A stretch of 64,000 nucleotides of DNA, taken from positions 21,330,001 through 21,394,000 of the forward strand of contig NC_086097.1 in assembly GCF_963921235.1 (NCBI RefSeq), in the 5' to 3' direction. Shown here piece after piece: positions 3,874 to 62,615 of the stretch. Under the pieces are notes generated by a model. The model saw only the letters and a list, made by a program, of their open reading frames with translations, searched no databases and was not told the origin of the DNA. The number at the start of each line of letters is the position of its first letter. The stretch's first letter is position 1. The DNA comes from Mobula hypostoma. Its lineage: Eukaryota. A program made the position numbers and the translations under genes.

Positions 3874-4526
3874 AAAGGATTACAGCACAGTACAGGCCCT
3901 TTCAGCCCATGATGTTGTGGCAACCTTTTAACTTATTCTAAGATCAATCTAACCCTTCCCTCCCATATAGCCCTCCATGTCTATATAAGAGACTACTGGA
4001 GCTCCCTAATGTATCTGCCTCTTACCACTACCTTGGTTGTGTGTTCCATGCATCACGCTCCAATCACCTTGGTTGGTGTTGGATCGCAAGAGAGGGAGTT
4101 TGTTGAATGCCCACGAGACTTCATTTTAGAGAAGCTCGTGCTTGAACCTAGTCAGGGAAAGGCTATCTTAGACTGGGTGTTGTGTAATAACCCAGACCTT
4201 CTTAGGGAGCGTAACATAAAGGAACCCTGAGGTGGCAGTGTTTATAATATGATTGATTTCATACTGCAATTTGAGAGGGAGAAGCATAACTCAGATGTAT
4301 CAGTATCGCAATGGAATAAAGGGAATTACAGTGGCATGAGACAGGAGCTTGCCCAATGGATTGGAGGGGGATACTGATGGAGACGATGGCAGAGATGGCT
4401 GATGTTTCTGGGAATAGTTCACATGGTGCAGGATAGATATGTCCCACAGAAGTTGTTCTCAAATAGCGAGTAGGCAACCGCAGCTGACAAGGAAAAGCCA
4501 AGGAAAAGGCATATAAGGTAGCAAAA

Positions 4527-9139: not shown

Positions 9140-9722
9140 TCATTCCAAGGATGTAATGCTGAGGCTTTATAAAGCATTGGTCAGACCCTACTTGGAGCAT
9201 TGGGAGCAATTTGGGCCACTTATCTAGGAAAGGATGTGCTGGCATTGGAAAGAGTCCAGAAGAGGTTCACGAGAATAATCTCAGGAATGAAAGGGTTAAT
9301 GTATGAGGTGCGTTTGATGGCTCTGGGCCTGTACTCACTGCAGTTTAAAAGAATGGGGAAGGGGGATCTCATTGAAACCTATCGAATATTGAAAGGCCTA
9401 GGTAGAGAGGATGTGTTTCACAAGTTGGGGGTGTCTCAGACCAGAAGGCACAGCCTCAGAATAGAAAGATGTGTGTTTAGAACAGAGATAGGGAGGAATT
9501 TTTTTCGGCGAGGGGGCCATGAATCTGTGGAATCCATTGCCATGAATGGTTATGGGGCCAAATCCATGGTTGATAAGTTCTTGATTAGTAAGGGTGTCAA
9601 ATATTACAGGGAGAAGGAAGGAGAATAGAGTTGAGAGGGAGGGGATAATAAACTAGCAATGATGAATGGCAGAACGGATTTGATGGGCCAAATTGTCAAA
9701 TTCTGCTCCTGTGTCTTATAGT
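9140..9722 (+). mobile_element. CR1 3' fragment
   Basis: ORF 9200..9628 (KDVLALERVQKRFTRII) and tail TTCTGCTCCTGTGTCTTAT. Confidence 0.9.
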
Positions 9723-10519
9723 TTATTTCAGTAAAACCTCTTCAATTTTCAGTTCCACCTTCATTTGCTACTCAATAACGTTTTCTGTTTCTGAAGCATT
9801 CTGGTTGTTGTTGCCCATTTTATTACTCTGCTCCATTGCCTTTTGAATTTTTGCTTCAACAGACTCCTCCACTCCCCACCCAAACGTTTTAGTTTCAGGT
9901 CCTGTTCACAAGACTGAACTGGTCTGAGTTGAGGTGATGCTGCCCCAACGAAGCAGCCCCCTCTCCCTGGCAACGTCAATCATCGAGCCTCTCACTCACT
10001 TCTCTGATCTTGTTGACCAAATGCCGGTTTGTGATTGGCTGAGAAGGAGTTCAGAGACTGCTGCTACTTTATGTTCCTGCTTTTCAATTTGGGACTGAGG
10101 TGCTTGTATTCCTTGGTAGATCCTCCCGAGTCAGTCCAACTGGTCAATGCCAGTCTTTCTGACCTACAGTAGTCTCCTTCCTTTGTTTCATCCCATTGTC
10201 AAAATTCCTCTCTTGCTCTGTAACATATTCATTGTCCCTGAGGAAAAGTTAATCTAAAATAAAGTTTAAAATACAGTTTATATCCCCGTTTCTACCCCAA
10301 ACAACTCTCTCAAAATTCATGCCGAGGAACTTTTTGAAGGAAGTTCCACATGGTTCACTTTCTAAAAGTCAAAGTTGAGTTTATCATCACGTGCACAAGT
10401 TCACGTATGCAGAAGTACAATGAAAATCTTACTTGCAACAGCTTCACAGCTTCATAAATGCTGCATCCACGGGAAGACCATGCAGTAAACACAAAATATG
10501 ATTTTTACACGAATGAACG

Positions 10520-10740
10520 TGTGGGTTGTGGGGTGTGTCAGTGTTACAATGAGGGGTGTGCGGTGTGTCAGTGTTACAGTGAGGGGTGTGGGGTGTGTGG
10601 GTGTCACCGTGAGGGGTGTGGGGTGTATCGGTGTCACGGTGAGGGAGTGGGGTGTGTCAGTGTTACAGTGAGGGCTGTGGGGTGTGTCAGTGTCACAGTG
10701 AGGGGTGTGGGGTGTGTCAGTGTCACAGTGAGGGTGTGAG
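10520..10740. repeat. 30-bp G/T-rich minisatellite, about 7 units
   Basis: Unit GAGGGGTGTGGGGTGTGTCAGTGTYACAGT with period 30. Confidence 0.95.
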
Positions 10741-11244: not shown

Positions 11245-11450
11245 CTATAGCGGGCCAGACAGCATCTAAGGAAAAGAGTAAACATTGACATTTCGGGCTG
11301 AGACCCTTCATTAGGAGTGGAAAGGAAGAGGAGAAGGGTCTCGCCCCAAAACGTCACCTGTTTACTCTTTTCTATCCTTCTGGCTGGCCTTCCAAGTTCC
11401 TCCAGCATTTTGTGTGTGGTGCTTTGGATTTACAGATTTTCTCGTGTTTG
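11245..11450. mobile_element. PLE-terminus fold-back element with decayed hammerhead cores
   Basis: Inverted arms homologous to 29885-29984. Minus strand reads CTAATGAAGGGTCTCAGCCCGAAATGTC at ~11287-11314. Confidence 0.8.
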
Positions 11451-14469: not shown

Positions 14470-16630
14470 CGTGGTGTCTTTTCTTCTTGTGGTTCCAAGA
14501 CAGATCACTTGCAATACCAGAGGAAACAACACACTGGACCATTGCTACACCACCATCAAGAATGCCTACTGTGCTATTCCACGCCCTTCCTTCAGGAAGT
14601 CTGATCACCTGGCTGTACTTCTACTCCCTGAGTATAGGCAGAGACTGAAGTCTGCAGCACCAGCAGTGAGGACCAAGAAGGTTTGGACAAGGGAAGCACA
14701 GGAGCGCCGATAGGACTGCTTTGAATCGGTGGACTGGACTGTATTCAGGGATTCATCTTTGAACCTGGACGAGTATGCTGCAGTTGTTACCGACTTCATT
14801 AAAACCTGTGTGGATGAGTATGTGCCTACAAAGACTTACTGCACATTCCCAAACCAAAAGTCGTGGATGAACCAGGAGGTACGTTGTCTGCTGAAGGCTA
14901 GATCTGTGGCATTCAAGTCTGGCAACCCAGGCCTGTACCAGAAAACCAGGTATGACTTGCGGAGGTTATTTCAAGGGCAAACAGACAATTTCGAATGAGG
15001 TTAGGGGCGACATCGGATGCACGGCAACTCTGGCAGGGTTTGCAGTCATTATTTTTTACAAAGTGAAACCCAATATATGAATGGCAGCGATCACTACCAG
15101 ATGAACTCAATGTCTTCTATGCCCGCTTTGAAAGAGAGACACAACTACAGCTGTGAAGATCCCTGCTGCACCTGATGACCTTGTGATCTCTGTCTCAGAG
15201 GCTGATGTTAGGCTGTCTTCAAAGAGAGTGAACCCCCTCAAGGTGGAAAGTCCCGATGGAGTACCTGATAAGGCTCTGCAAACCTGTGCCAACCAACTGG
15301 CAGGAGTATTCAAGGACATTTTCAACTTCTAACTGCTATGGGCAGAAGTTCCCACTTGCTTCAAAAAGACAACAATTATGCCAGTGCCTAAGAAGAATAT
15401 TGTGAGCTGCCTTAATGACTATCGCCCGGTAGCACTCACATCGACAGTGATGAAATGCTTTGAGAGGTTGGTTATGGCTAGACTGAACTCCTGCCTCAGC
15501 AAGGACCTGGAGCCATTGCAACTGAGAAGTTGCAGAACCTGGGCCTCTGTACCTCCCTCTGCAATTGGATCCTCGATTTCCTAACTGGAAGACCACAATC
15601 TGTGCGGACTGGTGGTAACATTTCCTCCTCGCTGACGATCATCACTGGTGCACCTCAGGGGTGTGTGCTTAGCCCACTGCTCTAATCTCTAAATACACAT
15701 GACTATGTGGCTAGGCATAGCTCAAATACCATATATAAATTTGCTGACAATGCAACCATTGTTGGTAGAAACTCAGGTGGTGACGAGAGGGTGTACAGGA
15801 GTAAGATATACCAACTAGTGGAGTGGTGCCGCAGTAACAACCTGGCACTCAATGTCAGTAAGATGAAAGAGCTGATTGTGGACTTCAGGAAGGGTAAGAC
15901 GAAGGAACATATACCAATCCTCATAGAGGGATCAGAAGTGGAGAGAGTGAGCAGTTTCAAGTTCCTGGGTGTCAAGATCTCAAAGGATCTAACCTGGTCT
16001 CAACATATTGGTGCAATTATAAAGAAGGCAAAACAGCAGCTCTACTTCATTAGGAGTTTGAAGAGATTTGATATGTCAACAAATACACTCAAAAACATCT
16101 GTAGATGTACTGTGGAGAGCATTCTGACAGGCTGCATCACTGTCTGGTATGGGGGGGTGGGTGGGGAACTTCTGCACAGGTCTGAAAAAAGCTGCAGAGG
16201 GTTGTAAGTTATAACCTACAAAGTAGGTTAGTCAGCTCCATCTTGAGTACTAGCCTACAAAGTACCCAGGACATCTTCAAGGAGCGGTGTCTCAGAAAGG
16301 CAGTGTCCATTATTAACAACTGTTACCATTGGGAAGGAGGTACAGAAGCCTGAAGGCACACACTCAGCGATTCAGGAACAGCTTCTTCCCCTCTGCTGTC
16401 CGATTCCTAAATGGACATTGAACCCTTAGTATATAGTATTATATAGTATTTCTATTTTTTGCACAATTTTTAATCTATTCAATACACATATACTGTATAA
16501 AGTATACTGAATAAGATTTACTATTATTATTTTTTTTCTTCTATATAATGTATTGCATTGAACTGCTGCTGCTAAGTTAACAAATTTCATGTCACATGCC
16601 GGTGATAATAAACCTGATTCTGATTCTGAC
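14470..16630 (+). mobile_element. Rex1/Babar-type LINE, 5'-truncated, frameshifted
   Basis: TRGNNTLDHCY and SDH (endonuclease end), [33 protein letters not shown] region, KFADN, and AATAAACCTGATTCTGATTCTGA tail. Confidence 0.92.
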
Positions 16631-19080: not shown

Positions 19081-19174
19081 TGGTGTGAACTAAGGCTGAG
19101 TGAATGGCAGAGCCACCTCCGTGTGGCTTTCATTGTTTTATGTGCTTCCTTTGCCAGCCTGTACTGCAAAATAT

Positions 19175-19690
19175 AAACACGAGAGATTATGCAGATGCTG
19201 GAAATCTTGAGCAACAGACACAAAGTGCCTGAGGAGCTCCAGGGCCTCCTCTCCTGCCACTATGAGGCCACTCTCAGGGTTGGACAGCAACACCTCATAT
19301 TCCATTTGGGTAGCCTCTAACCTGATGGCATGGATATCGATTTCTCCTTTGGGTAATTTTTCCCCCTTTTCTTTCTTATTTTCCTCCCCCTTCAGTCTTC
19401 TTCCATTCCCCACATTGGCCTCTTACCTTCCTGGTGCCCCTCCTTCCCTTTCTCACATGATCCACTCTCCTCTCCTATCAGAGTCCTTCTTCTCCAGTCC
19501 TTTACTTTTCCCGCCCACCTGGCTTCACCTGTTTAGCTTGTCCCTCCCACCCCAACACCACCTTTTTCTTCCCTTGACTAACCCCCTTCCTTTCCAAACC
19601 TGATGAAGGGTCTTGGCCTGAAACTGCAACTGTTTATCCATTTCCATACCTGACCTGCTGAGTTCCTCCAGCATTTTGTATGTATGGCTC
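19175..19690 (+). mobile_element. Penelope-like 3' fragment with inverted terminal piece at its 5' end
   Basis: Encodes the GIY-YIG end (QHLIFHLGSL*PDGMDIDF), pyrimidine-rich UTR and decayed hammerhead CTGATGAAGGGTCTTGGCCTGAAA at ~19600-19623. Confidence 0.88.
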
Positions 19691-20909
19691 TAATATTTCT
19701 TCATCCTGAAATCATTTTACATTGTAATTCTGCAAATATTTGCAAAAAGAATTCCATGGGTTTGCTTTTTTTATTTGAGTAACTAATCTTGACAGGAAAT
19801 CGTAGAGTAAAATCAAAGATCACAGCAGTCAACCCACTCAAAGACCAACAGATGGAAACCCATTCCATATTGTTGCCCCATTGCCTTGATTTTTTTAAAA
19901 TGGTATTTGCAGAACTAAAAAATAAACCTTTTGTTTTTGGAGATGATAAAGAACAATCTGAATTATTTAATTTGTATTTCATTGTATCCAAATACTCCCT
20001 GAAATCGTTCAGAAAATTTTAAATTAGAAGCAGGCCCCATGAGTTTACTCCACCATTCAGTAAGATGATGGTTGGTTTGATCTCAGTCTTCCCATCGTTC
20101 CTCAGGTAAACTTTTGCCTTAAAATATTAACAGATTTTGTATGCAGTACACTGCACTTGGAAGAAGAAAATTTAAAAGATTTGTGACCCTCAAAAGGGAA
20201 AAATAAATTGCTTCATCCCTCTCCAGTGAATGGCCTCATTTGAAACACTAGTTCAAGATTTTCTCACAATGGAAAAGTTGTGCACATCCATCCTAATAAG
20301 ACTGTTCTGGATTTTATACATTCTGACAGTTTTGTTATTTACTTGTTCATGGGATTATGGGCGTTCTTATTAAGGGGAAATACTCCATGGAACAGGAGGC
20401 ATCTGTGGAGGAGGAAACAGAGTTCTTGTTTCATCAGAACTGGGAGAAGATAAGGAGACATTATTCTTCTGAAGTCCAACAGATACAATCGTAGCATGCC
20501 TAATTTTCCTCTTAATACACCCCCTGCCAAAACTAAATATTAGTCTGGTAATATTTTGAACTGCAACATTGTTGGATTGGGGTTCAGAATGTTTTTTTTG
20601 TGTAGTTTATGCTTGCTTATATTTTTATATAATCACCTATGTACATGTAATTTTTCAGTGAATTTTCCAGTACAGTTGCTTGTGTATTTTTCTGGCAGCT
20701 TCTTAGTTTTCACTTATTAGTTGTTGTACTGGCCTTTTGCTAATCGTGCACCAGAAATCCCAGATCCCTCTGCAATGCAAAGCTCTGAAATCAGTCACCA
20801 TTTAGATTAGCTTTATTTTTCCTGCCAAAGAGGATAATTTTATCTTTTCCCACATTGATACTAAACAGATCTTTCCCTGCTCACTCAACCTATCAGTGTC
20901 CCTTTGTAA

Positions 20910-23769: not shown

Positions 23770-26112
23770 ACTTGCTCCTCCACTGCCTGGATTACTCTGT
23801 TTTATCCCTCCTAGTTCAGTCCCTCCCCACCTACACCCGTGACACTTCACACGCTTCTGAATCTTTTTCAATGATTTCAAGTTCCCTGGCCCCCATTATC
23901 TTATTTTTACTATGTACGTCCAGTTTCTATACACCTCCATCCCCCACCAGGAAGGCCTCAAAGCTCTCCATTTCTTTCTGGACATCAGACGCAACCAGTT
24001 TCCCTCCACCACCACACTCTTGCGTCTAGCGAAACTTGACCCCACTCTTAATAATTTCTCCTTTGGCCCCTCCCATTTCCTTCAAACAGAAGGTGTAGCC
24101 ATGGGAACCTGCATGGGTCCCAGCTATACCTGCTTTTTTGCCGGCCATGTGGAACAGTCTATGTTCCAAGCCTACACTGGTGTCCGTCCCCAACTTTTCC
24201 TACGCTGCATCGACTGCATTGGTGCTGATTCCTGCACTCATCCGGAGCTCATTGACATCATCAACTTTGCCTCCAATTTCCACCCTGCCTTCATCGTCTG
24301 GGATGGGAACTGTACTTCCCTCAGTTGCAGGCCCTTCCGGAGAGTGGTGCGGACACCCCAGCGCATCTGTGGATGTGAACTTCCCACTATTCAGGACATT
24401 TACTGTGACAGGTGTATAAAAAAGGCACAAAGGATTATTGGGGATCCGAGTCACCCCAACCGCAAAGTGTTCAACTGCTACCATCTGGGAAACAGTACCA
24501 CAGCATGAAAGACAGGACCAACAGGCTCCAGGACAGCTTCTTCCACCAGGCCATCAGACTGATTAATTCACACTGCCGCAATCATCTTTCTAAGCTATAT
24601 TGACTGTTCTGTTGTATATCTTACTGTACATACTATTTATTACAAATTACTATAGTTTACACATTGCACATTCAGATGGAGACGTAACAAAGATTTTTAC
24701 TCCTCACATATGTGAAGGATGTAAGAAATAAATTCAATTCAGTTTACCTGTTCCATTTCAGAAGCCTCCCTCCCCTTTCTCGATCTTTCTGTGTGTAGCT
24801 CTGGAAACAGCTTATCTACTGATGTCTATTATAAACCCATGGACTCTCACAGCTACCTGGACTATACCTCTTCCCACTCTGTTACTTGTAAAAAACACCA
24901 TCCCTTTTTCTCAATTCCACCATCGCATCTGCTCTCAGGATAAGGCTTCTCATTCTAGAATGGAGAAAATGTCCTATTTTTTTCAAAGAAAGGGGCTTCC
25001 CTTCCTCTATCATCAATGGTTGCCCTCAACCGCATCACTTCCATTTTACCCACATCTGCTCTTACCCCATCCTCCTGTCAGCCTACCAGGGATAGGGTTC
25101 CTCTTGTCCTCCCTTACCGCCCCACCAGCCTATGCGTCCAGCACATAGTTCTCCGGAACTTCAGCCATCTCCAACAAGATCCCACCACCAAGCTTATCTT
25201 TCCCTCTCCCCACTTTCTGCTTTCTGAAGAGTTTGCTCCCTATGTGACTCCCTTGTCCATTCGTCCCTCCCAACTGATCTCCCTCCTGACACTTATCCTT
25301 GCAAGTGGAACAAGTGCTACATCTGTCCCTACACCTCCTCCCTCACTACCATTCAGGGCCCCAAATTGTCCTTCCAGGTGAGGCGACACTTCACCTCTGA
25401 ATCATTTGGCGTCATCTACTGTGTCCGGTGCTCCCGATGTGGTCTCCTGTATATTGGTGAGACCCGACGTAGATTGGGAGACCGCCTCACCGAGCACCTA
25501 TGCTCCGTCTGCCAGAAGAAGCGGGATCTCCCAGTAGCCACTCATTTTAATTCCACTTCCCATTCCCATTCCGATATGTCAATCCATGGCCTCCTCAGCT
25601 GTCGCAATGAGGCCACACTCAGGTTGGAGGAACAACACCTTGTATTCCGTCTGGGTAGCCTCCAACCTGATGGCATGAACATCGATTTTTCAAACTTCCA
25701 GTGATGCTGCCCCCCGCTTCACTATTCCCCATCCCCTTTTCCTTCTTGCACTTATCTCCTTGCCTGGCCATTGTCTCCCTCTGGTGTTCCTCCCCCTCTT
25801 TCTTTCTTCCATGGCCTTCCGTCTTCTCCTGTTAAGTTCCCCCTTCTCCAGCCCTGTATCTCTTTCACCAATCAACTTCTTAGCTCTTTACTTCATTCCC
25901 TCCCCCACCAGTTTCACCTATCACCTTGAGTTTCTCCTCCCCCTCCCCCACCTTTTAAATTTACTCATCTGTTTTACTACAGTCCTGCAGAAGGGTCTTG
26001 GCCTGAAATGTCAACCGTACTTTTTCCTCTAAATATTGTCTGGCCTGCTGAGTTTCTCCAGCATTTTGTGTGTTTTGCTTGGATTTCCAGCATCTGCAGA
26101 TTTTCTTTTGTT
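23770..26112 (+). mobile_element. Older Penelope-like (Neptune-type) element, frameshifted
   Basis: LYTSIPHQEG, GVAMGT and GIY-YIG ORF 25366..25704 (VIYCVRCSRCGLLYIGET). Colinear with 28097-29984. Decayed hammerhead at ~25981-26016. Confidence 0.93.
24291..24740 (+). mobile_element. Rex-type LINE 3' fragment nested in the older PLE
   Basis: RTNRLQDSFFHQAIRL and AATAAATTCAATTC tail. PLE sequence CACCCTGCC...AGTTTACCTG resumes on both sides. Confidence 0.88.
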
Positions 26113-26204
26113 TACTCTGCTATGATCTTATCTCTCGTTCTGACTGAAGATCTGTCTTCACTTCAATGGCAGATTTTCCTTTATTCATCTCTGCTTTGTT
26201 GAGA

Positions 26205-26335
26205 CAGAATAACACACACAAAATGCTGGAGGACCTCAGCAGGCCAGGCAGCATCTATGGAGGGGAATAAGGAGTCGACAGTTTGGGCCAAGACCCCTCA
26301 TCAGGAGACCTGTCTTGGCCCGATACATTGACTAC
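26205..26335. mobile_element. PLE-terminus inverted fragment
   Basis: Minus strand reads CTGATGAGGGGTCTTGGCCCAAACTGTCGACT (decayed hammerhead), followed by a short + arm. Confidence 0.75.
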
Positions 26336-26374
26336 TTGACTCTTTAGCTGACTACTTGCCTTCCTTCACAGACT

Positions 26375-27342
26375 GCTGTGTACTTTGCTTCATGGAAGCA
26401 TGTCTCACCCCCACCATTTTGGATGCAGTGTTACAGCCTGAGGGGGTTCAACATTCACCGCAAAGACAGAATAGCTGATTCTCTTAAAGGTAGTGGAGGC
26501 AGAGTATGCCTCATGGTTAACTCATGGTGGTGCATGAACGTGGTAGTTCTGTCGCATTCCTGCTCACCTGACCTGGATTATCTAGTGGTCAAGTGCTGCT
26601 TATTCACCAGGATGTTGAACTCTAGCAAATTTCTACAGAGGTACCATGAAGAGCGTTCTAACTGGTTGCATCACGGTCTGGTATTGAGGGGCCACCGCAC
26701 AGGATCGGAAAAAACTGCAGAATGTTGCAAACTCCATCAGCTCCATCTTGTGCACTAGCCTCCCCAGCCAGAGGACATCTTCAAATGGCAATGCCACGAA
26801 AAATGGCTTCAATCATTAAGGATCCCTGTCACCCAGGACGTACCCTCTTCTCATTAAAGGGAGGAGGTACAGGTGCCTGAAGACACACACTCAATATTTA
26901 AGGAACAGCTTCTTCCCCTGTGCTATTAGATTTCTGAAAGGACAATCAATTGATGTACACTACCTCACTGTTTTTTTCCTTCACTTTTTGGACTAATTTA
27001 ATTTATTTTTTGAATATATGTTTCTTTTTGTAATTTATAGTTTTTAATTGTGTATTGCAATGTGCTGATGCTGCAGAACGACAGATTTCACAACATATGT
27101 CGGTGATATTAAACCTGATGGAGAGCAGTGCACACACAAAACGCTGGAGGAACTCAGCAGGTCAGGCAACATCTATAGAAAAGAGTAAACGGTCGATGTT
27201 TCATTCCAAAACATCAACTGTTTACTCTTTTTCATAGATGCTGCCTGACCCGCTGAGTTCCTCCAGCGTTTTATGTGCGTTGCTTTGGATTTCCAGCATT
27301 TGCAGACTTTCTCATACTTGTGATTAAACCTGATTGTGATTC
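26375..27342 (+). mobile_element. Internally deleted Rex-type LINE (endonuclease start fused to 3' end)
   Basis: GFNIHRKDR...GGRVCLMVNSWWC...CSPDLDYLVVKC joined at ~26600 to C-terminal and 3'UTR sequence. Confidence 0.8.
27120..27322. mobile_element. PLE-terminus fold-back element
   Basis: Inverted arms and 12-bp TSD ATTAAACCTGAT (27108-27119, 27323-27334). Confidence 0.88.
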
Positions 27343-28098
27343 ATGGGGCCGCCATTCACTGCTTCCAAGAAGTCGTAGTGAGCCAGTACTTTGAATCAGA
27401 GGTCCCACTGGCAAAGGCACACATTCGATGCTGCTGCGGAGAGAGTCTGAGGGTTCAGAACCCAGTGATAACCGAAGAAGAGTGATGCACTTCCAAACTG
27501 AGGCCAATCACCCATCGTTAATCAGTATGGAGTGTGAGTGAACACATCGAAGTCCATCACGGGCACAGCCCCCCACACCGTCACCAGCATTTTGAGAGGT
27601 GCTGCCTTCGGAAGGTGGCAGCTATCGTGAAGGATCCCCACCGTGCGTGTCATGCTCTCCTTGCTGCCGTTGTTGGGGAGGATGTATAGGAGCTTGAAGT
27701 CTCTTAACACCAGGGTCAGGAACAGATACTATCGGACAAACATTGGGTCCTTGAACTGACCTGCACAACCTGACCATACCTTAGTAGTGAAACACTATGG
27801 ACCACCTCTTGCACCATAATACATAGGAGCAGAATTAGGCCATTTGGCACATCAAACCTGTCCAACATTCCATCATGGCCGATTTATTATCCTTTTCAAC
27901 CCCACTCTCCTGCCTTCTCCCCGTACCCTTTGACACCCTGACTAACCAACGATTTATCAGCCTCTGCTTTAAATATACCCAATAACCTGGCCTCCACAGC
28001 TGTCCTTGGCAATGAATTCCACAGATTCACCATCCTCTGCTTAAAGAAATCCCTTCTCATCTCTGTTCCAAATGGAAACCACTCTATTCTGAGGCTCG

Positions 28099-29586
28099 AC
28101 ATACCTCGACACTATTTTATCACCCCTTGTTCAATCCCTTCCGACCTATGTTCGTGACACTTCTCATGCTCTTAAACTTTTCGATGATTTTAAGTTCCCT
28201 GGCCCCCACCGCTTTATTTTCACCATGGATGTCCAGTCCTTATATACTTCCATCCCCCATCAGGAAGGTCTCAAAACTCTACGCTTCTTTTTGGATTCCA
28301 GACCTAATCAGTTCCCCTCTACCACCACTCTGCTCCGTCTAGCGGAATTAGTCCTTACTCTTAATAATTTCTGCTTTGGCTCCTCCCACTTCCTCCAAAC
28401 TAAAGGTGTAGCTATGGGCACCCGTATGGGTCCTAGCTATGCCTGCCTTTTTGTTGGCTTTGTGGAACAATCTATGTTCCGTGCCTATTCTGGTATCTGT
28501 CCCCCACTTTTCCTTCGCTACATCGACGACCGCATTGGCGCTGCTTCCTGGACGCATGCAGAACTCGTTGACTTTATTAACTTTGCCTCCAACTTTCACC
28601 CTGCCCTCAAGTTTACCTGGTCCATTTCCGACACCTCCCTCCCCTTTCTAGATCTTTCTGTCTCTGTCTCTGGAGACAGCTTATCCACTGATGTCTACTA
28701 TAAGCCTACTGACTCTCACAGCTATCTGGACTATTCCTCTTCTTACCCTGTCTCTTGCAAAAACGCCATCCCCTTCTCGCAATTCCTCCGTCTCCGCCGC
28801 ATCTGCTCTTAGGATGAGGCTTTTCATTCTAGGACGAGGGAGATGTCTTCCTTTTTTAAAGAAAGGGGCTTCCCTTCCTCCACTATCAACTCTGCTCTTA
28901 AACGCATCTCCCCCATTTCACGTACATCTGCTCTCACTCCATCCTCCCGCCTCCCCACTAGGAATAGGGTTCCCCTGGTCCTCACCCACCACCCCACCAG
29001 CCTCCGGGTCCAACATATTATTCTCCGTAACTTCCGCCACCTCCAACGGGGTCCCACCACTAAGCACATCTTTCCCTCCCCGCCTCTCTCTGCATTCCGC
29101 AGGGATCGCTCCCTACACAACTCCCTTGTCCATTCGTTCCCCCCATCCCTCCCCACTGATCTCCCTTCTGGCTGTTATCCGTGTAAGCGGAACAAGTGCT
29201 ACACATGCCCTTACACTTCCTCCCTTACCACCATTCAGGGCCCCAAACAGTCCTTCCAGGTGAGGCAACACTTCACCTGTGAGTCGACTGGGGTGATATA
29301 CTGCGTCCGGTGCTCCCGATGTGGCCTTTTATATATTGGCGAGACCCGACGCAGACTGGGAGACCGCTTTGCTGAACATCTACGCTCTGTCCGCCAGAGA
29401 AAGCAGGATCTCCCAGTGGCCACACATTTTAATTCCACATCCCATTCCCATTCTGACATGTCTATCCACGGCCTCTTCTACTGTAAAGATGAAGCCACAC
29501 GCAGGTTGGAGGAACAACACCTTATATTCCGTCTGGGTAGCCTCCAACCTGATGGCATGAACATCGACTTCTCTAACTTCCGCTAA
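28099..29586 (+). pseudogene. PLE reverse transcriptase + GIY-YIG endonuclease, one in-frame stop (28810-28812), N-terminus missing
   Basis: DVQSLYTSIP, QTKGVAMG, LRYIDD, LPFLD, CKRNKCYTC linker and VIYCVRCSRCGLLYIGET. ORFs 28225 and 28843 share a frame. Confidence 0.95.
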
Positions 29587-29885
29587 GGCCCCACCTCCCC
29601 CTCGTACCCCATCTGTTACTCATTTTTATGCACACATTCTTTCTCTCACTCTCCTTTTTCTCCTTCTGTCCCTCTGAATATACCTCTTGCCCATCCTCTG
29701 GGTCCCCCCCCCCTTGTCTTTCTTCCCGGACCTCCTGTCCCATGATCCTCTCATATCCCCTTCTGCCTATCACCTGTCCAGCTCTTGGCTCTATCCCTCC
29801 CCCTCCCGTCTTCTCCTATCATTTTGGATCTCCCCCTCCCCCTCCCCCTCCAACTTTCAAATCCCTTACTCACTCTTCCTTCAGT

Positions 29886-29923
29886 TAGTCCTGACGAAGG
29901 GTCTCGGCCTGAAACGTCGACTG
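29886..29923 (+). ncRNA. Minimal type I hammerhead ribozyme in PLE terminal repeat
   Basis: AGTC-CTGACGA-AGG(GTCTCGG)CCT-GAA-ACGT-C-GACT. Stem I AGTC/GACT, palindromic ACGT stem III, GUC site at 29916-29918. Confidence 0.85.
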
Positions 29924-30829
29924 CGCCTCTTCCTACAGATGCTGCTTGGCCTGCTGCGTTCACCAGCAACTTTGATGTGTGTTGCTATTCTGAGGCTGTG
30001 CCCTCTCGTCTGAGATTCACCCACTATAGGAAACATCCTCTCTACATTCAGTCTGTGTAGGTCTTTCAATATTCATTAACTTTCAATGAGATGCCCCCTC
30101 ATTCCAACAAGTACAGACCCAGAGCCATAAAACGCTCCTCATTTAGTTAATCCTTTGATTCCCGAAATCATTGTTATGAACCTCCTCTGGACCCTTTTCA
30201 ATGCCAGTACATCTTTTCTTAGATAGGGGGCCCAAAGTTGCTCACAATACCCCAAGTGCAGTCTGAATAATGTCTTATAAAGACTCAGCATCACATCCTT
30301 GCTGTTATATTCTAGACCTCTTGAAATGAATGCTAACATTGCATTTCCCTTTCGTACTATTAACTCAACTGCAAGTTAACCTTTAGGGAATCCTGCGAGA
30401 GGATTTCCAAGTCCCTTCACACCTCTGAGTTTTGAATTTTCTTCCTTTTTAGAAAATAGTCAAAGCACATGACCATGAACTATATTCCATCTGCCGCACC
30501 TTTGCCCATTCTCCCAATCTGTCCAAGTCCTTCTGCAGAGTCCCTTCTTCCTCAACACTGCCTGCCCACACCTATCTCTGTATCTTCTGCAAACTTAGCC
30601 ATGAAGCCATCGATTCTGTCACCCAAATCGTTGACATATAATGTGAGAAGAAGTGATTCCAATACTTTTTTCAGTCATGACTTAGCAATGACCACAATGT
30701 CCTCCCTGCCAATCTCTAACTGCCCTGCAAGATCTTATTCCGTATACTGTGTGCATTCAAATATAACATTTTCAGTCCTGTATTCATCACGCTTTTCAAT
30801 TTTGCCCTGCACGTTACACTTCAACTCAT

Positions 30830-32080: not shown

Positions 32081-32900
32081 TTTTCAGAGCTAGGATTGAA
32101 CATGCTGCTCTGTTCCTGGATTCTGCTGTATTTTCAACCAGGTGGGTTTATAAAGATGAAAACATATGATAATGGGGAAGCTACTACAAATGCTCTGCTT
32201 TTATTAACACTACATTAGGGGTCCCTGAGTGGTCCGTGGAGATCCATACCTCTGCATTGTTTTCGGTTTTAAACCATTCCTTGCTGTTCATCCTACTTCA
32301 CTCGCAAAGTGTCCCTGTGAACGAATGGATTTTTTTCTTCAGTCAATTTTGTCTTTGCTGCTAGCTGATTATACCATTGAAGCATGTACTCAGTAGGTGC
32401 AGAAGTGACACATTATTCCGGTTAGATGTGAAAATCCCTTTTATTGAAGACAAAGAAAGGCCTAAGCCCCAAGGCTTATGGATCTCTGTATATCTCAATC
32501 TATTGCCAATCTTGCTCGAAGTTTAAGATGATTAACTGGATTTCAAAACCTATTAATCCCTGTCCGAAGGGGAAAAAATGCAGGGTTATGAGTAGAGAAC
32601 AGGCATTTGGGGTTGGCTGGATTTCTCTTGTATAGAGCTAGCATTGGATCAAAGGACTGAATGGCCTCTGTTTTCATTAATGATTCTGTGCTATATTTTT
32701 TGCTTGCTGTTTGTAATGAAAGGCTTGGACTTCTAAAGCACCTTATAAATTTCATGTCGATGAAGTAAATAAACTTAATTTATCCAATATGCATATACTG
32801 TAATTGACTTATTGATTTGTTCTTCTATATTATGTATATATTATGTATTGCCTATGATATTAAACCTGATTCTGATTCTGAACTTAATGTCTCACAGCTC

Positions 32901-33740
32901 TTTATAATGAATAAACTGTTGCAATATAGAACGTATAACAGCATAGTAGATGAACAAGCCCTTTATAATGAATGAACTGTTGCAATATAGAACGTATAAC
33001 AGCATAGTACATGAACAAGCTCTTTATAATGAATAAACTGTTGCAATATAGAACGTATAACAGCATAGTAGATGAACAAGCCCTTTATAATGAATAAACT
33101 GTTGCAATATATCTTTGACTACAAGTACCTCGGGTCAAGAATGATGAGTTCGGAGAAGGACATAAGGATACGGAAGGCACTGGCGTGGAGGGCTATGAAT
33201 GACATGAAGGAAATCTGGAAGTCAAACCTGACCAGAGGGCTTAAAAAGAGGATTTTCATAGCAGTCATAGAGTCCATTCTCACGTACGGATGCGAGACGT
33301 GGACACTCACCAAGACGATGGGAAAGTCTCTAGATGGTTGCTATACACGAATGCTCCGGATGGCTTGACGTGAGTTGGCAACAGCACATGGCGAACGTTG
33401 AGCTGTATAACAACCTACTGATGCCCACCACTAAAATCGAGGTGAGAAGACTGCAACTAGCGGGGCACTATCTACGCCACCCCGAGCTACCTGCCAGCCT
33501 AGTCATCATATGGGAGCCCAAGCACGGGAGGATGAACCCTGGGCGCCCTCCCAACACTATGGTCAACACGATCCTGGAAGACAGCGGCGCGGCTAATGTA
33601 GATGAACTGAACACACTGATGAGGGAGAGGGAGAAGTGGAGAGTCCGTCATCGTGCCCGACGCCGGCCCCCTGGGCCTGAGTGGATGCAGGAGTAGTTGC
33701 AATATAGAACGTATAACAGCATAGTACATGAACAAGCCCT
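32901..33740. repeat. 61-bp tandem repeat, 4 units, last unit split by RTE
   Basis: Units start at 32901, 32962, 33023 and 33084 (TTTATAATGAATAAACTGTTGCAATATAGAACG...AACAAGCCC). Confidence 0.95.
33112..33695 (+). mobile_element. Young RTE-clade LINE 3' fragment
   Basis: YKYLGS, ESILTYGCETWTLT, RRLQLAGHYLRH and GRP motifs. One frameshift at ~33365. Perfect 11-bp TSD GTTGCAATATA (33101-33111, 33696-33706). Confidence 0.93.
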
Positions 33741-33834: not shown

Positions 33835-36800
33835 AATAGGGATAGGAAGGTAGACAGAGGGGATAGTGTGGCTGTACTGGTAAAGAATGGCATCAAATCA
33901 GCAGAAAGATGTGACATAGGATCGGAAGATGTTGAATCCTTGTGGGCTGAGTTAAGAAACTGCAAGGGTAAAATGACGTTGATGGCAGTTATATACAGGC
34001 CTCCCAACAATGGCTGGGAGGTGGACCACAGGTTACAACAGGAAATTGAAAAGACGAGTCAAAAGGGCAATGTTATGGTAGTCATGAGAGATTTTAACAT
34101 GCAGGTCAATTGGGAAAATCAGGTTGGTAATGGATCTCAAGAGTGTGAGTTTGTTGAATGCCTGAGAGATAGCTTTTTAGAGCAGTTTGTCGTTGAGCCT
34201 ACTAGGGGATCAGCTATACTGGACCGGAGGTGATTAGGGAGCTTAAGATAAAAGAACTCTTAGGAACCAGCGATCACAATATGATTGAGTTCAACTTGAA
34301 AGTCTGATGTAGCAGTAGAGTAAGGGAAATTACGGTGGTTTGAGAGAGGAGTTGGCCAAAGTAAATTGGAAGGAGCTGCTGGCAGGGATGTCAGCAGAGC
34401 AGCAATGGTGTGCTTTTCTGGGGAAAAATGAGGAAGTTGCAGGGCACATGTATTCAAAAATGAAGAAATACTCAAATGGTAAAGTATTACATCTATGGCT
34501 GACAAGGGAAGTCAAAGCCATTGTAAAAACAAAAGAAAGGACATATAACAAAGCAAAAATTAGTTGGAAGATAGAAGCTTAGCAAGTTTTTAAAGACCTA
34601 TAGAGAGCAACTAAAAAAATCATTAGAAGGGAAAAGATGAAATATGAAAGCAAGCTAGCAAATAACATCAAAGTGGATAGGAAAAGTTTTTTCAAGTATG
34701 TTAAAAATAAAAGAGAAATGAGAGTGGATATAGGACTGCTAGAAAATGAGGCAGGAGAAATAATAACGGGGGAGAAGGAGATGGCAGATGAACTAAATGA
34801 GTATTTTCCATCAGTCTTCACTGTGGAAAACACTAGCAGTATGTCTGATGCGTGTGAAGGAAGAGAAGTGGATGCAGTTACTATTACAACAGAGAAGGTG
34901 CTCAAAAAGCTGAAAGACCTAAAGGTACATAAGTCACCCGGCCCAAATAAACTGCATCTCAGGGTTCTGAAAGAGGTAGCACTAAAGATTGTGGTGGCAT
35001 TAGAAATGATCTTTCAGAAATCATTGGACTCTGGCATGGTGCCAGAGGACTGGAAAATCGCAAATATCACTCCACTCTTTAAGAAAGGAGGAAGGTAGCA
35101 GAAAGGAAATTATAGACCAGTTAGCCTAACCTCAGTGAATGGGAAACTGTTGAAGTCAATTGTTAAGGATGAGGTGATAGAGTACTTGGTAAAACAGGAC
35201 AAGACAGGAAAAAATCAGCAATGGTTTCCTGCCTGACGAACCTTTTGGAATTCTTTGATGAGATTACGAATAGGATAGATTAGATTAGATTATGAGGACA
35301 CACAGTCCGCTTTTATTGTCATTTAGTAATGCATGCATTAAAAAATGATACAATATTCCTCTGGTGTGATATCACAGAAACACAGGACAGACCAAGACTG
35401 AAAAAACTAACAAAAACCACATAATTATAACATATAGTTACAACAGTGCAACGATACCATAACTTGATGAAGAACAGTCCATGGCACAGTAAAAAAGTTC
35501 AAAGTCTCTCAAAAGTCCCACATCTCACGCAGACGGGAGAAGGAAGAAAACTCTCCCTGCCATGCCCGACCACAGTCTGACTCTGAGTCATCTGAAATCT
35601 TTGAGCTCTGATCAGCCCTCTGACACCGAGTACCGAGCACCATCTCTGCTGAACGCTTCGACCTCAGCCTCGGTTGCCAGCAGCAGGCAAAGCCGGGGAT
35701 TTTGGGGCCTTCCCTCCGGAGATTCTCGATCGCACAGTTGCAGTGGCAGCGAACCGGGCATTTCAGAAATTTCTCCAGATGTTCCTCTACTTCTCACGTC
35801 TGTCTCCATCAAATCAGAATTGTGCACGGCGTCCTACTTACAAATACCATATCCTTTCACTGGAGAGCTGCGCGCACTGCGTCGCGCCGCATCTTCTCCT
35901 CCCAATAAAAAGGATGCAGTGGATGTTGTATATTTGGACTTTCAGAAGACCTTTAACAAGGTGCCACACATGAGGCTGCTTACTAAATTAAGACCCCATG
36001 GTATTACAGGAAAGTTACAAACATGGTTAGAGCATTAGCTCATTGGTAGGAGGCAGTGAATGGGAATAAAAGGATCCTTTTCTGGTTTGCTGCCAGTGAC
36101 TAGTAGTGTTCTGTAGGGGTCAGCGTTGGGACCACTTCTTTTTATGCTGCATATAAATACAATTTGTTTTAGACGATGGAACAGATGGCTTTGTTGCCAA
36201 GTTTGCAGATGACACGAAGATTGGTGGGGGGGCAGGAAGTGTTGAGGAAACAGGTAGGATGCAGAAGGATTTAGACAGATTAGGAGAATGGGCAAGAAAG
36301 TGGCAAATGAAATACAATGTTGGAAAATGCATGTTCATGCACTTTGGTAGTAGAAATAACTGCGTGGACAATTTTCTAAACAGGGAGAATATCCAGGAAT
36401 CTGAGATGCAGAGGGACTTGAGAGTCCTTGTGCAGAACACCCTGAAGGTTAACTTTTAGGTTGAGTCAGTGGTGAGGAAGGCAAATGCAATATTAGCATT
36501 CATTTCAAGAGGTCTAGAATACAAGAGCAAGGATTTAATGCTGAGGCTTTATAAGGCACTGGTGAGGCCTCACCTTGAGTATTGTGAACAGTTTTGGGCC
36601 CCCCATCTTAGAAGAAATGTGCTGGCATTGGAGAGGGTCCAGAGAAGGTTCACAAGGATGATTCCAGGAAAGGAAGGGTTATCATATGAGGAACGTTTGA
36701 TGGCTCTTGGTCTGTACTCACTGGAATTCAGAAATATGACGGTGTATCTCGTTGAAACCTTTCGAATGTTGAAAGGCCTAGGCAGAGTAGATGTGGAAAG

Positions 36801-37135
36801 GATGTTTTCCATGGTGGGAGAGGCTAGGACAAGAGGGCACAGCCTCAGGATAGAGGGGCACCCTTTTTAAAACGGAGATGCTGAGAAATTTTTTAGCCAG
36901 AGGGTGGTGAATTTGTGGAATTTGTTGCCACGTGCAGCTGTGGAGGCCAGGTTGTTGGGTGTATTTAAAGCAAAGATTGATAGGTTCTTGATTGGACATG
37001 GCATCAAAGGTTACAGAAAGAAGGCTGGGAACTGGGGTTGAGGAGGAGAAAAAAAAAGGGATCAGCCATGATCGAATGGCGGAGCAAACTCGATGGGCCA
37101 GATGTCCTAATTCTGCTCCTGTGTCCTATGGTCAT
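33835..37135 (+). mobile_element. Long decayed CR1 ORF2 (endonuclease to 3' tail)
   Basis: VIYRPPN, DFN, DWKIANITPLFKKG, VVYLDFQK, HLEYCEQFWAPHL and tail TTCTGCTCCTGTGTCCTATGG. Many disruptions. Confidence 0.93.
35277..35903 (-). mobile_element. Non-autonomous CpG-rich retroposon with (AATCT)n tail
   Basis: Splits CR1 RT between EITNRID and KKDAVDVVY. Minus strand begins GGGAGGAGAAGATGCGGCG and ends AATAAAA...(AATCT)n. Confidence 0.82.
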
Positions 37136-37139
37136 ATGA

Positions 37140-37615
37140 TCTAAAGCCTTTTCATCCTCTTTATAATACAGCAGAACTGAATTCAACATTCCAGGCAACA
37201 CACAAAATGCTGGAGGAACTCCGCAGGTCAGGCACCTAACTAGAATTTTGTACAGTTGAAACATAACTTCCTGACTTTCAATCTCAATGCCTTAACCAAT
37301 AAAGGCAAACATGCCAATACCTTCATAAATATTGTGTTATTAAACTGTGCAACCACTTTTAGGGAGCTATGGACCCCAAGATCCCTCTGTAACGTAAAGA
37401 GTCTTTACAATGTACAGTTTCTTTACATTGATCTCCCACAATGCAGAACTTCACATCTGGCTGAGTTAAATGCCATCTACCATTTCTCTGCCCATACTTG
37501 CTACTGATCTGAATCCCACTGTATCCTTTGCCAGTCTTCTATGCTATCCACAATATTACCAATCTTTGTGTTAACTGCAAACTTACTAACCCACCATCTA
37601 CATTTTAATCCAGGA
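37140..37615 (-). mobile_element. Old CR1 RT fragment with small PLE-terminus piece (~37195-37235)
   Basis: CCACCAATCTTTGTG...TGCAAACTT-like antisense FADD region. CAACACACAAAATGCTGGAGGAACT insert. Confidence 0.65.
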
Positions 37616-38178: not shown

Positions 38179-39463
38179 GTCTCATCGACCACTATCCTCA
38201 CTATTCTTTGGGGAGCAAATACTGGGTCTAAGTGGCCAAATAGGAATGGTGGGGACCCATATGAGCACAGCAAGCTGCCACAAATGGCAATCACCAATTG
38301 ATCTGTTGGAATATTAGGCGAATGATGTGTATTGGCTGGCGCACCAGGGATAACTCCCTCACTAATCAAAACGATGCAATTATATCCTCTGGAAAGAACA
38401 AATAGGGTTTAGCATTTAATCTAAAAGATGTATCCCTGACAGTGCAACACTCCTCGGCAATGCACAGAAGGACTTCAACTACTGCACAGAGTCTTGCCAT
38501 CTTCAGAAGTTTTTGGATGACTCTGCCATAGTTGGATGTATCAGCAAGGGAGATGAGGTTGAGTTCAGGGCTACGTTAGGAAACTTTGTCACATGGTGTG
38601 AGCAGAATTATCTGCAGCTTAATGTGAAAAAGTCTATGGAGCTGGTGGTAGACCTGAGGAGAGCTACGGTACCGGTGACCCCTGTTTCCATCCAGGTGGT
38701 CAGTGTGGACATGGTGGAGGATTACAAATACCTGGGGATACGAATTGACAATAAACTGGACTGGTCAAAGAACATTGAGGCTGTCTACAAGAAGGGTCAG
38801 AGCCGTCTCTGTTTCCTGAGGAGACTGAGGTCCTTTAACATTTGCCGGATGATGCTGAGGATGTTCTACAAGTCTGTGGTGGCCAGTGCCATCATGTTTG
38901 CTGTTGTGTGCTGGGGCAGCAGGCTGAGGGTAGCAGACACCAACAGAATCAACAAACTCATTCGTAAGGCCAGTGATGTTGTTGGGATGGAACTGGACTC
39001 TCTGACGGTGGTGTCTGAAAAGAGGATGCTGTCCAAGTTGCAAGCCATCTTGGACAATGTCTCCCATCCATTACATAATGTACTGGGTGGGCACAGGAGT
39101 ACATTCAGCCAGAGACTCATTCCACCGAGATGCAACACAGAGCGTCATAGGAAGTCATTCCTGCCTGTGGCCATCAAACTTTACAACTCCTCCCTTGGAG
39201 GGTCAGACACTCTGAGCCAATAGGCTGGTCCTGGACTTATATCCTGGCATAATTTACATATTACTATTTAATTATTTATGGTGCAACTGTAACGAAAACC
39301 AATTTCCCTCGGGGTCGATAAAGTATGACTATGACTATGACTATGACTAAGTGTTGGCCTAGTCTCGGTAATGGTGACCAAGTAGTGGATTGTTGTAAAA
39401 TCCAACCTGGTTCACTAATGCCCTTAATAGATGGAAATCTATTTCCATCTTTGAATATGTGGT
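38179..39463 (+). repeat. Left arm of local inverted duplication (split by Rex1)
   Basis: 38179-38470 plus 39352-39463 align to the reverse complement of 40605-41006. Confidence 0.9.
38471..39348 (+). mobile_element. Young Rex1/Babar-type LINE 3' fragment
   Basis: Open 236-aa frame (DDSAIVG, LQLNVKK, YKYLG, SFLPVAIKLYN), (ATGACT)n tail, AAG duplication. Confidence 0.94.
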
Positions 39464-45349: not shown

Positions 45350-46258
45350 ATAGTCATAGTCATAGTAGTCATAGTCATACTTTATTGATCCCGAGGGAAA
45401 TTGTTTTTTGTTACAGTTGCACCATAAATAATAAATAGTAATAGAACCATAAATAGTTAAATAGTAATATGTAAATTACGCCAGTAAATTATGAAATAAG
45501 TCCAGGACCAGCCTATCAACTCAGGGTGTCTGACCCTCTAAGGGAGGAGTTGTAAAGTTTGATGGTCACAGGCAGGAATGACTTCCTATGACGCTCTGCG
45601 CTATTTTCTATGTTTCTATGTGCTGCATCTCGGGGGAATGAGTCTCTGGCTGAATGTACTCCTGTGCCCACCCAGTATATTATGTAGTGGATGGGAGACA
45701 TTGACCAAGATGGTATGCAACTTGGACAGCATCCTCTTTTCAGACACCACCGTCAGAGAGTCCAGTTCCATCCTCACAACATCACTGGCCTTACAAATGA
45801 GTTTGTTGATTCTGTTGGTGTCTGCTACCCTCAGCCTGCTGCCCCAGCACACAACAGCAAACATGATAGCACTGGCCACCACAGACTCATAGAACATCCT
45901 CAGCATCATCCAGCAGATGTTAAAGGACCTCAGTCTCCTCAGGAAATAGAGACGGCTCTGACCCTTCTTGTAGACAGCCTCAGTGTTCTTTGACCAGTCC
46001 AGTTTATTGTCAATTTGTATCCCCAGGTATTTGTAATCCTCCACGATGTCCACACTGACCACCTGGATGGAAGCAGGGGTCACCGGTACCTTAGCTCTCC
46101 TCAGGTCTACCACCAGCTCCTTAGTCTTTTTCACATTAAGTTGCAGATAATTCAGCTTACACCATGTGACAAAGTTTCCTACTGTAGCCCTGTACTCAGC
46201 CTCATCTCCCTTGCTGATGCATCCAACTATGGCAGAGTCATCCGAAAACTTCTGAAGA
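45350..46258 (-). mobile_element. Young Rex1/Babar-type LINE 3' fragment (same subfamily as 38471-39348)
   Basis: ORF 45616..46134 is nearly identical to 38513..39223. (ATGACT)n tail. Confidence 0.94.
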
Positions 46259-46862
46259 CTTCTGAAGAAAAAATAGTGTCAGTACCACCCACAGAAATCC
46301 TTCCATGCCTTGAGTCATTTTCTTTTAAATACTTTATTGTACACTGATCATGAAATTCTAGAGGATTGCTTTCACATCACCGCCATTGATAAACAGGTAC
46401 CAATCAATGATGATTGCCCTTTGGTTAATACAAGTCAGCATATCTACTGCCAATATGAAACCACAGTGCAAACTGCTGTATGTTATCTATTGAACTGCAA
46501 TGTACATCAATCAAAAGGCCTCTCCGTAGAGACTGAATCTTGTAGTGCAGTAACCTAATCCTGAGTTTCAGCATCACTGGCTCATGATTTATAATGGACA
46601 AAAAAAAATCTTGAATGCCTGTAACTCACTCTCAGGTACTTATCATTCTACACTGAATCTATCTGAAGCCCATAAATAAGAACCTAGCCTGTTACTTGCT
46701 TCCAGCCTCCCATTATTGTACAAAAAAACATAGTTAACCAACACAGAAATTGGCTCTTTGGCCCATCTCATCCACTCCCATAAAAATGTCTATCTGAGCT
46801 AGTTCTATTTGTCTGCATTTGCCTATAACCCTTTCTATCCATTTACTTTCTACCCACGTACT

Positions 46863-51070: not shown

Positions 51071-51111
51071 GGTCAAGTCCAGAGTGGTGTGTGACAAGTT
51101 ATAAGCTGATG

Positions 51112-51306
51112 CAACACCCACAAAGTGCTGGAGGAACTCAGCAGGCCAGGCAGCATCCATGGAAATGAATAAAGAGTTGACATTTTGGGCCTAAACCCTC
51201 TCATTATTCCTCTCCGTAGATGCTGCCTGACCTGCTGAGCTCCCTCAGCATTTTGTGTGTGTTGCTTTGGATTTCCAGCATCTGCAGAAACTCTTGTGTT
51301 TACATA
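51112..51306. mobile_element. PLE-terminus fold-back element
   Basis: Inverted arms and 9-bp TSD AAGCTGATG (51103-51111, 51307-51315). Confidence 0.85.
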
Positions 51307-51809: not shown

Positions 51810-52361
51810 TAGTATGGCCTCCACAGAGCCCTGATCTCAACATAATCAAGGCTGTCTGGGATTATCTGGAGAGACAGAACCAAGCGAGACAGCTAAAGTC
51901 TGCGGAAGGACTGTGATAAGTTCTCTAAGATGCTTGGAACAACCTACCAGCTGATTTTCTTATAAAACTGCACTTCAGTGTACCTAGTTATAAAGGCAAA
52001 GGGTGGTAACACCAAATATTGATTTGATTCAGTTTTTTTTTACTATTTACTGCATTTTATAGTAAATTTTCTGATGTTTCGAAACTTTTCATTTCATTAT
52101 TTATGAACACATCTTTACTGTACAGAAACACGAGGAAATTTGCAGATGCTGGAATTTCAAGCAACACACATAAAAGTTGCTGGTGAACGCAGCAGGCCAG
52201 GCAGCATCTCCAGGAAGAGGTACAATCGACGTTTCGGGTCTCGGCCCGCAACGTCGACTGTACCTCTTCCTAGAGATGCTGCCTGTGCCTGCTGCGTTCA
52301 CCAGCAACTTTACTGTACAGAGTTTTTTTACATGTGCTCAAGACTTTCGCACGGTTCTGTA
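51810..52361 (+). mobile_element. Tc1-like 3' fragment (same family as 49369-49782)
   Basis: WPPQSPDLNIIKAVWDYLE...KAKGGNTKY and right TIR AAGACTTTCGCACGGTTCTG|TA. Confidence 0.88.
52127..52307. mobile_element. Young PLE-terminus fold-back element (long hairpin)
   Basis: ~65-bp inverted arms centred on GGGTCTCGGCCC (~52236-52247). 14-bp TSD CTTTACTGTACAGA (52113-52126, 52308-52321). Confidence 0.92.
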
Positions 52362-62134: not shown

Positions 62135-62615
62135 AACCTGCCCACTCATCTCCTCCCTCACCTCCGTTCAGTGGTCCAAACAGCCATTCCAGGTGAGGCT
62201 ACACTTCACCCTTGAATCTGCTGGGGTCATCTATTGCTTCTGATGCTCCCAACACAGTCTGCTCTACATTGGTGAGACCTGTTGTAAATTGCGAGACCGC
62301 TTTGTCAAGCATCTCTGCTCCATCTGCCAAAAGTGGAACTTCCTGGTGGCTGAACTTTTTCTCTTTCCTGTTCCAGTATGTCGGTCCATGTTTTCGTCTT
62401 GTGCCAAGATAAGGCCAGCATCAGGGTGGAGGAGTAACACCGTATATTCCGTCTGGGTAACCTCCAACCTGGTGGCATGAATATGGATCTCTCCTTCCAA
62501 TGAAAACCTATTTCTCTCCCCCTCCCTTTTCTTCTATTCTCCACACTGGTCTCTTAGCTCTTCTCACCTGTCTGTCACTTCCACCTGGGTCCCCTCCTCC
62601 CTACCTTTCTCCGCT
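62135..62615 (+). mobile_element. Decayed Penelope-like 3' fragment (GIY-YIG region)
   Basis: SSLTSVQWSKQPFQVRLHFTLESAGVIYC. Colinear with 29200-29750. Confidence 0.87.

Follow-up and report, generated by a model that had tools for sequence, protein, structure and literature searches.

The motif at positions 29886-29923 (+) of the window, that is, the whole 64-kb stretch of Mobula hypostoma DNA that was analysed, is a well-formed, real and correctly located minimal type I hammerhead motif, and its letters are exactly those given in an initial annotation of this DNA. Most probably, it is the ordinary minimal hammerhead of a Neptune-type, very abundant Penelope-like element (PLE) from cartilaginous fishes, sitting as a passive passenger in a dead copy, and in the autonomous tandem parent of that element it would serve as a slow, partner- and protein-dependent cutter. 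The motif sequence, its place in the pseudo-LTR, the truncation of the element, the stop codon, the target duplication and the abundance of the family were all directly observed. As the initial annotation acknowledged, the class is not new: the motif fits the published consensus of the PLE kind (PMC4209133). PLE minimal hammerheads have been known since 2014, with thousands of copies per genome, and the cartilaginous-fish family is at most an added example; a single motif matters little, and what is of use is the abundance of the family. What PLE hammerheads do is still described as unclear (PMC8557442).

The motif comprises four successive parts, all on the forward strand: (i) helix I, with five pairs, namely AGTC (29887-29890) with GACT (29919-29922), as initially described, plus a T29886-G29923 wobble, its 5' strand (29886-29890) thus pairing with 29919-29923; (ii) the core from C3 to A9 with one extra A (29891-29898; CTGACGA at 29891-29897, extra A at 29898); (iii) helix II and its loop (29899-29910), with G-U at 10.1-11.1; and (iv) G12-A13-A14-A15.1, ACGU and C17 (29911-29918). 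The GAAA at 29911-29914 shares A29914 with the self-complementary A-C-G-T at 29914-29917, which has no loop, and the earlier description of a palindromic ACGU as the remnant of stem III is borne out. In hammerhead numbering, C2.1 is 29890, G12-A15.1 are 29911-29914, C15.2-G16.2 are 29915-29916, U16.1 is 29917, C17 is 29918 and G1.1 is 29919; this numbering predicts a cut between 29918 and 29919, in agreement with the position first proposed. The following features of the PLE minimal hammerhead are present: the core C3-U4-G5-A6-N7-G8-A9, G12-A13-A14-A15.1 and U16.1-H17; the type I topology, with helix I open and helix II closed by a loop; and the 15.2-16.2 palindrome (C29915-G29916) in place of loop 3. 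Helix III could only be formed between two copies, as an ACGU duplex with a predicted energy of -1.7 kcal/mol.

Helix II is indeed short, as initially annotated, but the extra A29898 had been missed and the closing pair is G-U instead of G-C. It consists of four pairs (G29899-U29910, G-C, G-C and U-G), two of them wobbles, around a 4-base loop. The register that leaves A29898 as an extra base between positions 9 and 10.1 is slightly favoured (-2.5 kcal/mol) over the register that pairs A29898 with U29910 (-2.2 kcal/mol). The usual G10.1-C11.1 pair is highly conserved, not invariant, and G-U at this position occurs among the 56 published examples, for instance in cichlid and Xenopus (PMC4209133 Fig. 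S3). Compared with those PLE hammerheads, the motif is alike in being of type I, in its CUGANGA followed by one extra base and its GAAA, in the two-base palindromic remnant of helix III, in a helix I of 4-5 bp, in the U-rich upstream sequence and in the presence of a single 3' motif in a 5'-truncated element; it differs in its short helix II (4 bp, two wobbles) closed by G-U rather than G-C (PMC4209133). Pairs of motifs on opposite strands are also mentioned for PLEs in the same source (PMC4209133). None of the 56 examples listed in its Fig. S3 comes from a cartilaginous fish.

The motif lies on the sense strand of a PLE pseudo-LTR, 300 bases past the stop codon of a GIY-YIG endonuclease, and the presence of reverse transcriptase (RT) and GIY-YIG sequences upstream on the same strand fits a PLE carrier. 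This 5'-truncated, probably Neptune-type element (28097-29984, +) is inserted into a LINE fragment of the opposite strand, which we take to be of CR1 type from a translated motif. Its bounds are established by two facts: (i) it is flanked by an exact 13-bp target-site duplication (28084-28096 and 29985-29997, both given on the forward strand), while an exact shared word of at least 12 bases was found in 1/1994 random window pairs; and (ii) its flanks continue into one another in two other copies of the host repeat (36432-37104 and 9146-9693), where they match adjoining stretches that overlap by 13 bases. The short end of the family and the duplication share two bases, the last two of the former being the first two of the latter.

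From its 5' end, the element (+) contains an RT remnant with a YIDD motif (28097-28812; Pfam RVT_1, E=3e-5, below the curated cut-off), interrupted by an in-frame TAG at 28810-28812; the rest of the ORF in the same frame, with the C-terminal part of the RT, the linker and the GIY-YIG endonuclease (28813-29586; Pfam GIY-YIG, E=4.4e-5, above the cut-off); a pyrimidine-rich untranslated part of the pseudo-LTR (29587-29885); the hammerhead; and the pseudo-LTR downstream of the predicted cut (29924-29984), up to the family's short end. It begins inside the RT, has no 5' pseudo-LTR and carries one hammerhead only; read by eye against the proteins P0006 and P0007, it lacks what corresponds to approximately the first 435 of the 927 residues of a relative. 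The location at the 3' end claimed in the initial annotation is therefore right as to the 3' pseudo-LTR, but the motif sits 61-98 bases inside the end of the element (29984). The element ends 66 bases past the predicted cut and, since the insertion runs across that site, the RNA that was copied was either uncut or rejoined there. The hammerhead does not define the 3' end of the element. A tail continues beyond 29986 in related contigs, and it is about 35 bases long in other copies within the window.

As regards its classification, seven of 1277 candidate proteins passed the comparison; the best matches are one protein of the stingray Hypanus sabinus (75% identity) and three of sharks (55-66%), which by themselves point to a cartilaginous fish, probably a ray, as the host. 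The linker carries a C-X4-C-X2-C zinc-finger motif (29182-29208, +), whose C124, C129 and C132 are invariant in 6/6 aligned proteins; C167, C170, H205 and H211, a feature of endonuclease-bearing PLEs, are likewise invariant in the aligned proteins. Neptune and Nematis share a CX2-5CxxC linker motif that Penelope/Poseidon lacks (PMC8557442); by this definition, the evidence points to Neptune or Nematis and not to Poseidon. A protein-based locus search found no relatives in viral-contig stretches (0/3) or prokaryote genomes (0/257).

Other sequences of the same family were observed in and outside the window. An older second copy (23794-26114), 76-79% identical, has a broken hammerhead core, an interruption of about 450 bases (24294-24740) and an 8-base flanking duplication, and a fragment of the endonuclease region (62129-62493) stops before the hammerhead. 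P0001, a stingray gene model annotated as an isoform of a divergent protein kinase, corresponds almost wholly to the RT and endonuclease of this PLE and is probably an annotation artefact or an exonised element; it runs past the position of the PLE stop codon into other sequence. A GT is found at the ORF stop codon in 2/4 window copies of the PLE. The stretch at 29865-29888, branch-point-like and pyrimidine-rich, leads to a CAG (29882-29884) and resembles a splice acceptor, with a second AG at 29887-29888, within helix I. The PLE of Drosophila virilis has an intron whose 3' boundary is the 5' end of helix I (PMC4209133).

The terminal repeat is also present as separate arms. A profile built from six window copies detected 19 arms, the focal one included, and none in the reversed control; with a further short arm recognised by eye at about 26312-26344, the non-focal arms are 19 in all. 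Eleven of these 19 begin 7-32 bases upstream of the cut, inside the hammerhead body, while five begin downstream of the cut, one at -56 and two far upstream; none begins 3 bases or less from the cut. There are seven head-to-head pairs, made up of fourteen arms, with an exact flanking duplication of 8-14 bases in 4/7 pairs (at least 8 bases in 27/1994 random pairs) and a junction overlap of 3-8 bases in 5/7. A young pair at 52126-52311 is centred on helix II and its loop, with one tailed arm and a 14-base flanking duplication. In the six other pairs (11249-11449, 19174-19691, 26205-26344, 27131-27315, 51111-51305 and 57358-57462), the junction often makes use of a short self-complementary stretch, and in most cases a tailed arm faces a short one. 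Fold-back priming of a single cDNA on helix II was considered for these pairs and set aside: the arms end at different tail positions in 5/7 of them.

This pattern suggests an alternative to a passively carried cutter, improbable as it is, namely that the hammerhead of this family, once folded, chiefly tells the reverse transcriptase where to stop and join, with cleavage being secondary: two cDNAs, primed from the two target nicks, would stall inside it and join through self-complementary parts, giving short head-to-head insertions. Arms begin inside the motif more often than in the next 33 bases upstream (11 vs 1; binomial p=0.003), although the bins were drawn after the data had been seen, the two arms of a pair do not count as independent, and in old copies the ends given by local alignment are shifted by several bases (for the arm at 37188-37259, one method gives a start at +24 and another at about -2). 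The excess over starts downstream of the cut (11 vs 5) is not significant (p=0.11), and a steep bias towards short copies could produce the same pattern. The junction overlaps and flanking duplications are in keeping with joining, as is the centring of the pair at 52126-52311 on helix II, but this is the only one of the seven junctions placed exactly there, the others using other self-complementary parts, and short units may also arise by amplification from short templates. Also in favour of such a scheme, the green anole PLE protein nicks both strands and extends them, starting at two sites on the RNA (PMC11167929). That the hammerhead fold, and not the cut, sets the stop of the cDNAs and the joining point of oppositely primed cDNAs is given a low probability. 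If true, short palindromic, duplication-flanked mini-elements with 5' ends inside the ribozyme would be mass-produced, and the genome sequence by itself would reveal a structural role for the long-unexplained PLE hammerhead.

Inverted pseudo-LTRs, tails and junction palindromes were already known (PMC3846280, PMC8557442). The Penelope elements of Adineta vaga, with inverted and solo pseudo-LTRs, are alike in their head-to-head arrangement, their palindromic inverted junctions and their optional tail at one end, and theirs have target duplications of 8-10 bp (PMC3846280). They differ in that many junctions here lie inside the hammerhead; the word "hammerhead" is absent from PMC3846280, and the junctions are read there as self-priming on an antisense template. 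No paper tying inverted junctions to the hammerhead was found in the open-licence PMC and bioRxiv literature.

A second and still less probable alternative holds that the focal copy is itself a working ribozyme, so that read-through or host transcripts of the locus would pair in trans with another family transcript and be cut 3' of C29918. The core bases and both helices are intact, the letters are those of the family majority at the listed positions (runs X1 and X5), the family abounds in runs presumed to be RNA, and another of its thousands of transcribed copies could act as the partner in trans. Nevertheless, the 64-kb window holds no intact partner on the same strand: no other copy passes the descriptor described below, their cores or helices being broken. 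Folding predictions also speak against it. The monomer cannot close helix III, and in the fold that it favours the core is paired to the cleavage segment; the predicted probability of a hammerhead-ready monomer is 1e-3 for the motif alone and approximately 1e-6 to 1e-5 with its natural flanks. In that context, the upstream pyrimidine tract is predicted to pair with the core, which the last 15 or so bases of the untranslated stretch (29587-29885) could thus block. For two strands, the double hammerhead is predicted at -11.5 kcal/mol, two monomers at -22.0 and an inactive duplex of the same two strands at -30.3, so that the double hammerhead is 18.8 kcal/mol less stable than this duplex; since nearest-neighbour energies omit tertiary core contacts and magnesium, these values understate the active fold. 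Both as monomer and as dimer, the naked RNA is thus predicted to prefer inactive rods.

Published relatives offer support to both sides. The schistosome minimal hammerhead was inactive as a monomer and weak as a multimer (PMC4209133), and among nine Xenopus retrozyme dimers one cleaved very well in vitro but the other eight did not (10.64898/2026.07.22.740005). The anole PLE hammerhead was cleaved only with the protein of the element and was dispensable for insertion in vitro; uncut RNA was the main template, and no RNA-seq reads started or ended at the hammerhead cut (PMC11167929). The claim of a working catalytic RNA at this locus, made in the initial annotation, is not supported, given a solitary 5'-truncated copy with damaged same-strand neighbours, a favoured inactive duplex and a cut site that was copied across. 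Catalysis at this locus is unlikely and, with neither a partner nor a working protein of its own, the focal copy probably does not cleave in vivo.

For the preferred reading, a passively carried hammerhead that serves the autonomous parent, cleavage, dimer formation and protein help are taken by analogy from published relatives. In such a parent, a long transcript would hold two hammerhead motifs, whose ACGU segments would pair to form helix III, probably only with the element's own protein. The RNA would then be cut, slowly, after the base equivalent to C29918, trimming multimeric precursors. Integration, judging from the copies, would proceed mostly from RNA uncut at this site, and reverse transcription would begin downstream of it, at a distance of about 66 bases for the short end or about 100 for the tailed end. 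The analysis found neither a full-length nor a tandem parent of the family. Among known systems, the Poseidon element PAc of the green anole is alike in that its pseudo-LTR hammerhead is followed downstream by two alternative ends, spaced about 35 bases from each other, and in that its copies extend across the cut site (PMC11167929). It differs in belonging to the Penelope/Poseidon clade and in that its ORF starts at helix II (PMC11167929), whereas the focal copy has the Neptune/Nematis linker and ACG as the equivalent triplet. Animal non-LTR retrozymes are likewise PLE-derived, hammerhead-bearing repeats, but they form head-to-tail tandem units (10.64898/2026.07.22.740005) while the focal motif is single, and no tandem array covering it was found in the window. 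They were reported in one chondrichthyan genome among 31 vertebrates (10.64898/2026.07.22.740005). Beyond this preprint, the literature offered nothing specific on a chondrichthyan PLE hammerhead, and the supplements of the preprint and of PMC4209133 may name cases.

The specificity of the match was assessed with a strict descriptor (helix I of at least 3 bp, CUGANGA, an optional extra base, helix II of at least 3 bp and GAAA-N-N'-U-H). On both strands of the 64 kb, this descriptor has a single match, 29886-29923, which confirms the intact core CUGACGA/GAAA/GUC reported in the initial annotation. The loose core pattern alone has 11 matches in the window for 9.68 expected; being at chance level, it shows that the helices carry the signal. 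The check then suggested, a search with Rfam Hammerhead_1, was of no help: Rfam gave no match at the gathering score anywhere in the window and, at E<=10 over 29700-30100, it returned three unrelated weak matches with no hammerhead family among them. Such a miss is to be expected, presumably, of a motif that has neither helix III nor tertiary loops. The weakest alternative, a chance arrangement of letters in a repeat tail, could appeal to this silence of Rfam, to a folding z-score of only -1.24 and to covariation among copies not above that of shuffles, but it is effectively refuted, since just 1/300 dinucleotide shuffles contains any strict-descriptor match and the motif lies where published PLE hammerheads lie and has features that the descriptor does not require (G at 10.1 and the U-rich upstream sequence).

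Covariation among family copies, whose absence the initial annotation had named as a refutation, was evaluated in an alignment of seven sequences (six window copies and the unrelated locus L001), with the structure drawn from the focal copy. Paired cells amounted to 81.7%, in comparison with 17-45% in slid controls; covariation did not exceed that of shuffles (124/500 reach the paired fraction and 126/500 the score), so that in this small sample the refuting observation was made, neutrally decaying genomic copies being, however, a weak test. One compensatory change is convincing and corresponds to helix I of the unrelated L001; among the 40 listed of the 60 variant rows from sequencing runs, there is no compensatory pair. 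The case for selection on the fold therefore rests on the published cross-species alignment and not on these data. The family-like pattern was found at no locus in viral contigs and at one in metagenome contigs, L001, which belongs to an unrelated family. There (751-782, minus strand), a minimal hammerhead with a 6-bp helix II and a GUU cleavage triplet lies upstream of the apparent start of a PLE reading frame, with the same architecture as the focal motif.

Family variation was examined in four of 24 sequencing runs, all of which consist of contigs; 4221, 5089, 14 and 24591 contigs fell on 29760-30080, thousands in three of the four, these numbers and the depths below not being copy numbers and the contigs being biased towards the letters of the window. 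Contigs cannot show RNA ends, so that a lack of pile-ups of ends is uninformative. None of the 32 pieces listed, with 34033 more unlisted, joins the motif to the right flank of this locus, which has no bearing on expression. Differences inside the motif (40 of 60 variant rows listed) are all transitions, most of them at CpG, and the variation of the family looks like CpG decay. In run X20, changes at G12, C15.2, G16.2, C17 and G1.1 make up 10-15% of depth and those at the loop CpG 10-13%; as core and cut-site changes match the loop, the motif is not protected in genomic copies.

The focal motif itself is not decayed, given that in runs X1 and X5 its letters at the positions listed are those of the majority. 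T at 29910 accounts for 81%, 71%, 94% and 39% of depth in the four runs, and C for 19%, 29%, 6% and 61%, with C also in 3/7 aligned rows. Private CpG decay was considered as an origin for T29910 and rejected: T has the larger share in 3/4 runs, compared to 2-9% for other CpG-type changes (X1, X5). As T29910 is common across runs, the closing G-U is an allele of the family rather than damage private to this copy.

Regarding the rest of the window, the long frames mostly resemble LINE remnants, some by Pfam matches to RVT_1 or ALKBH8_N and others by eye (4522-5418, 9173-9628, 15686-16207, 34604-35098, 38420-39223, 45616-46278, 55329-55820 and 59671-60225), and no host gene was identified among the window frames of at least 150 residues. 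Two minisatellites are also present: (i) one with a 30-base unit in 7.4 copies (10519-10738); and (ii) another with a 61-base unit in 3.5 copies that are 95% alike (32896-33111).
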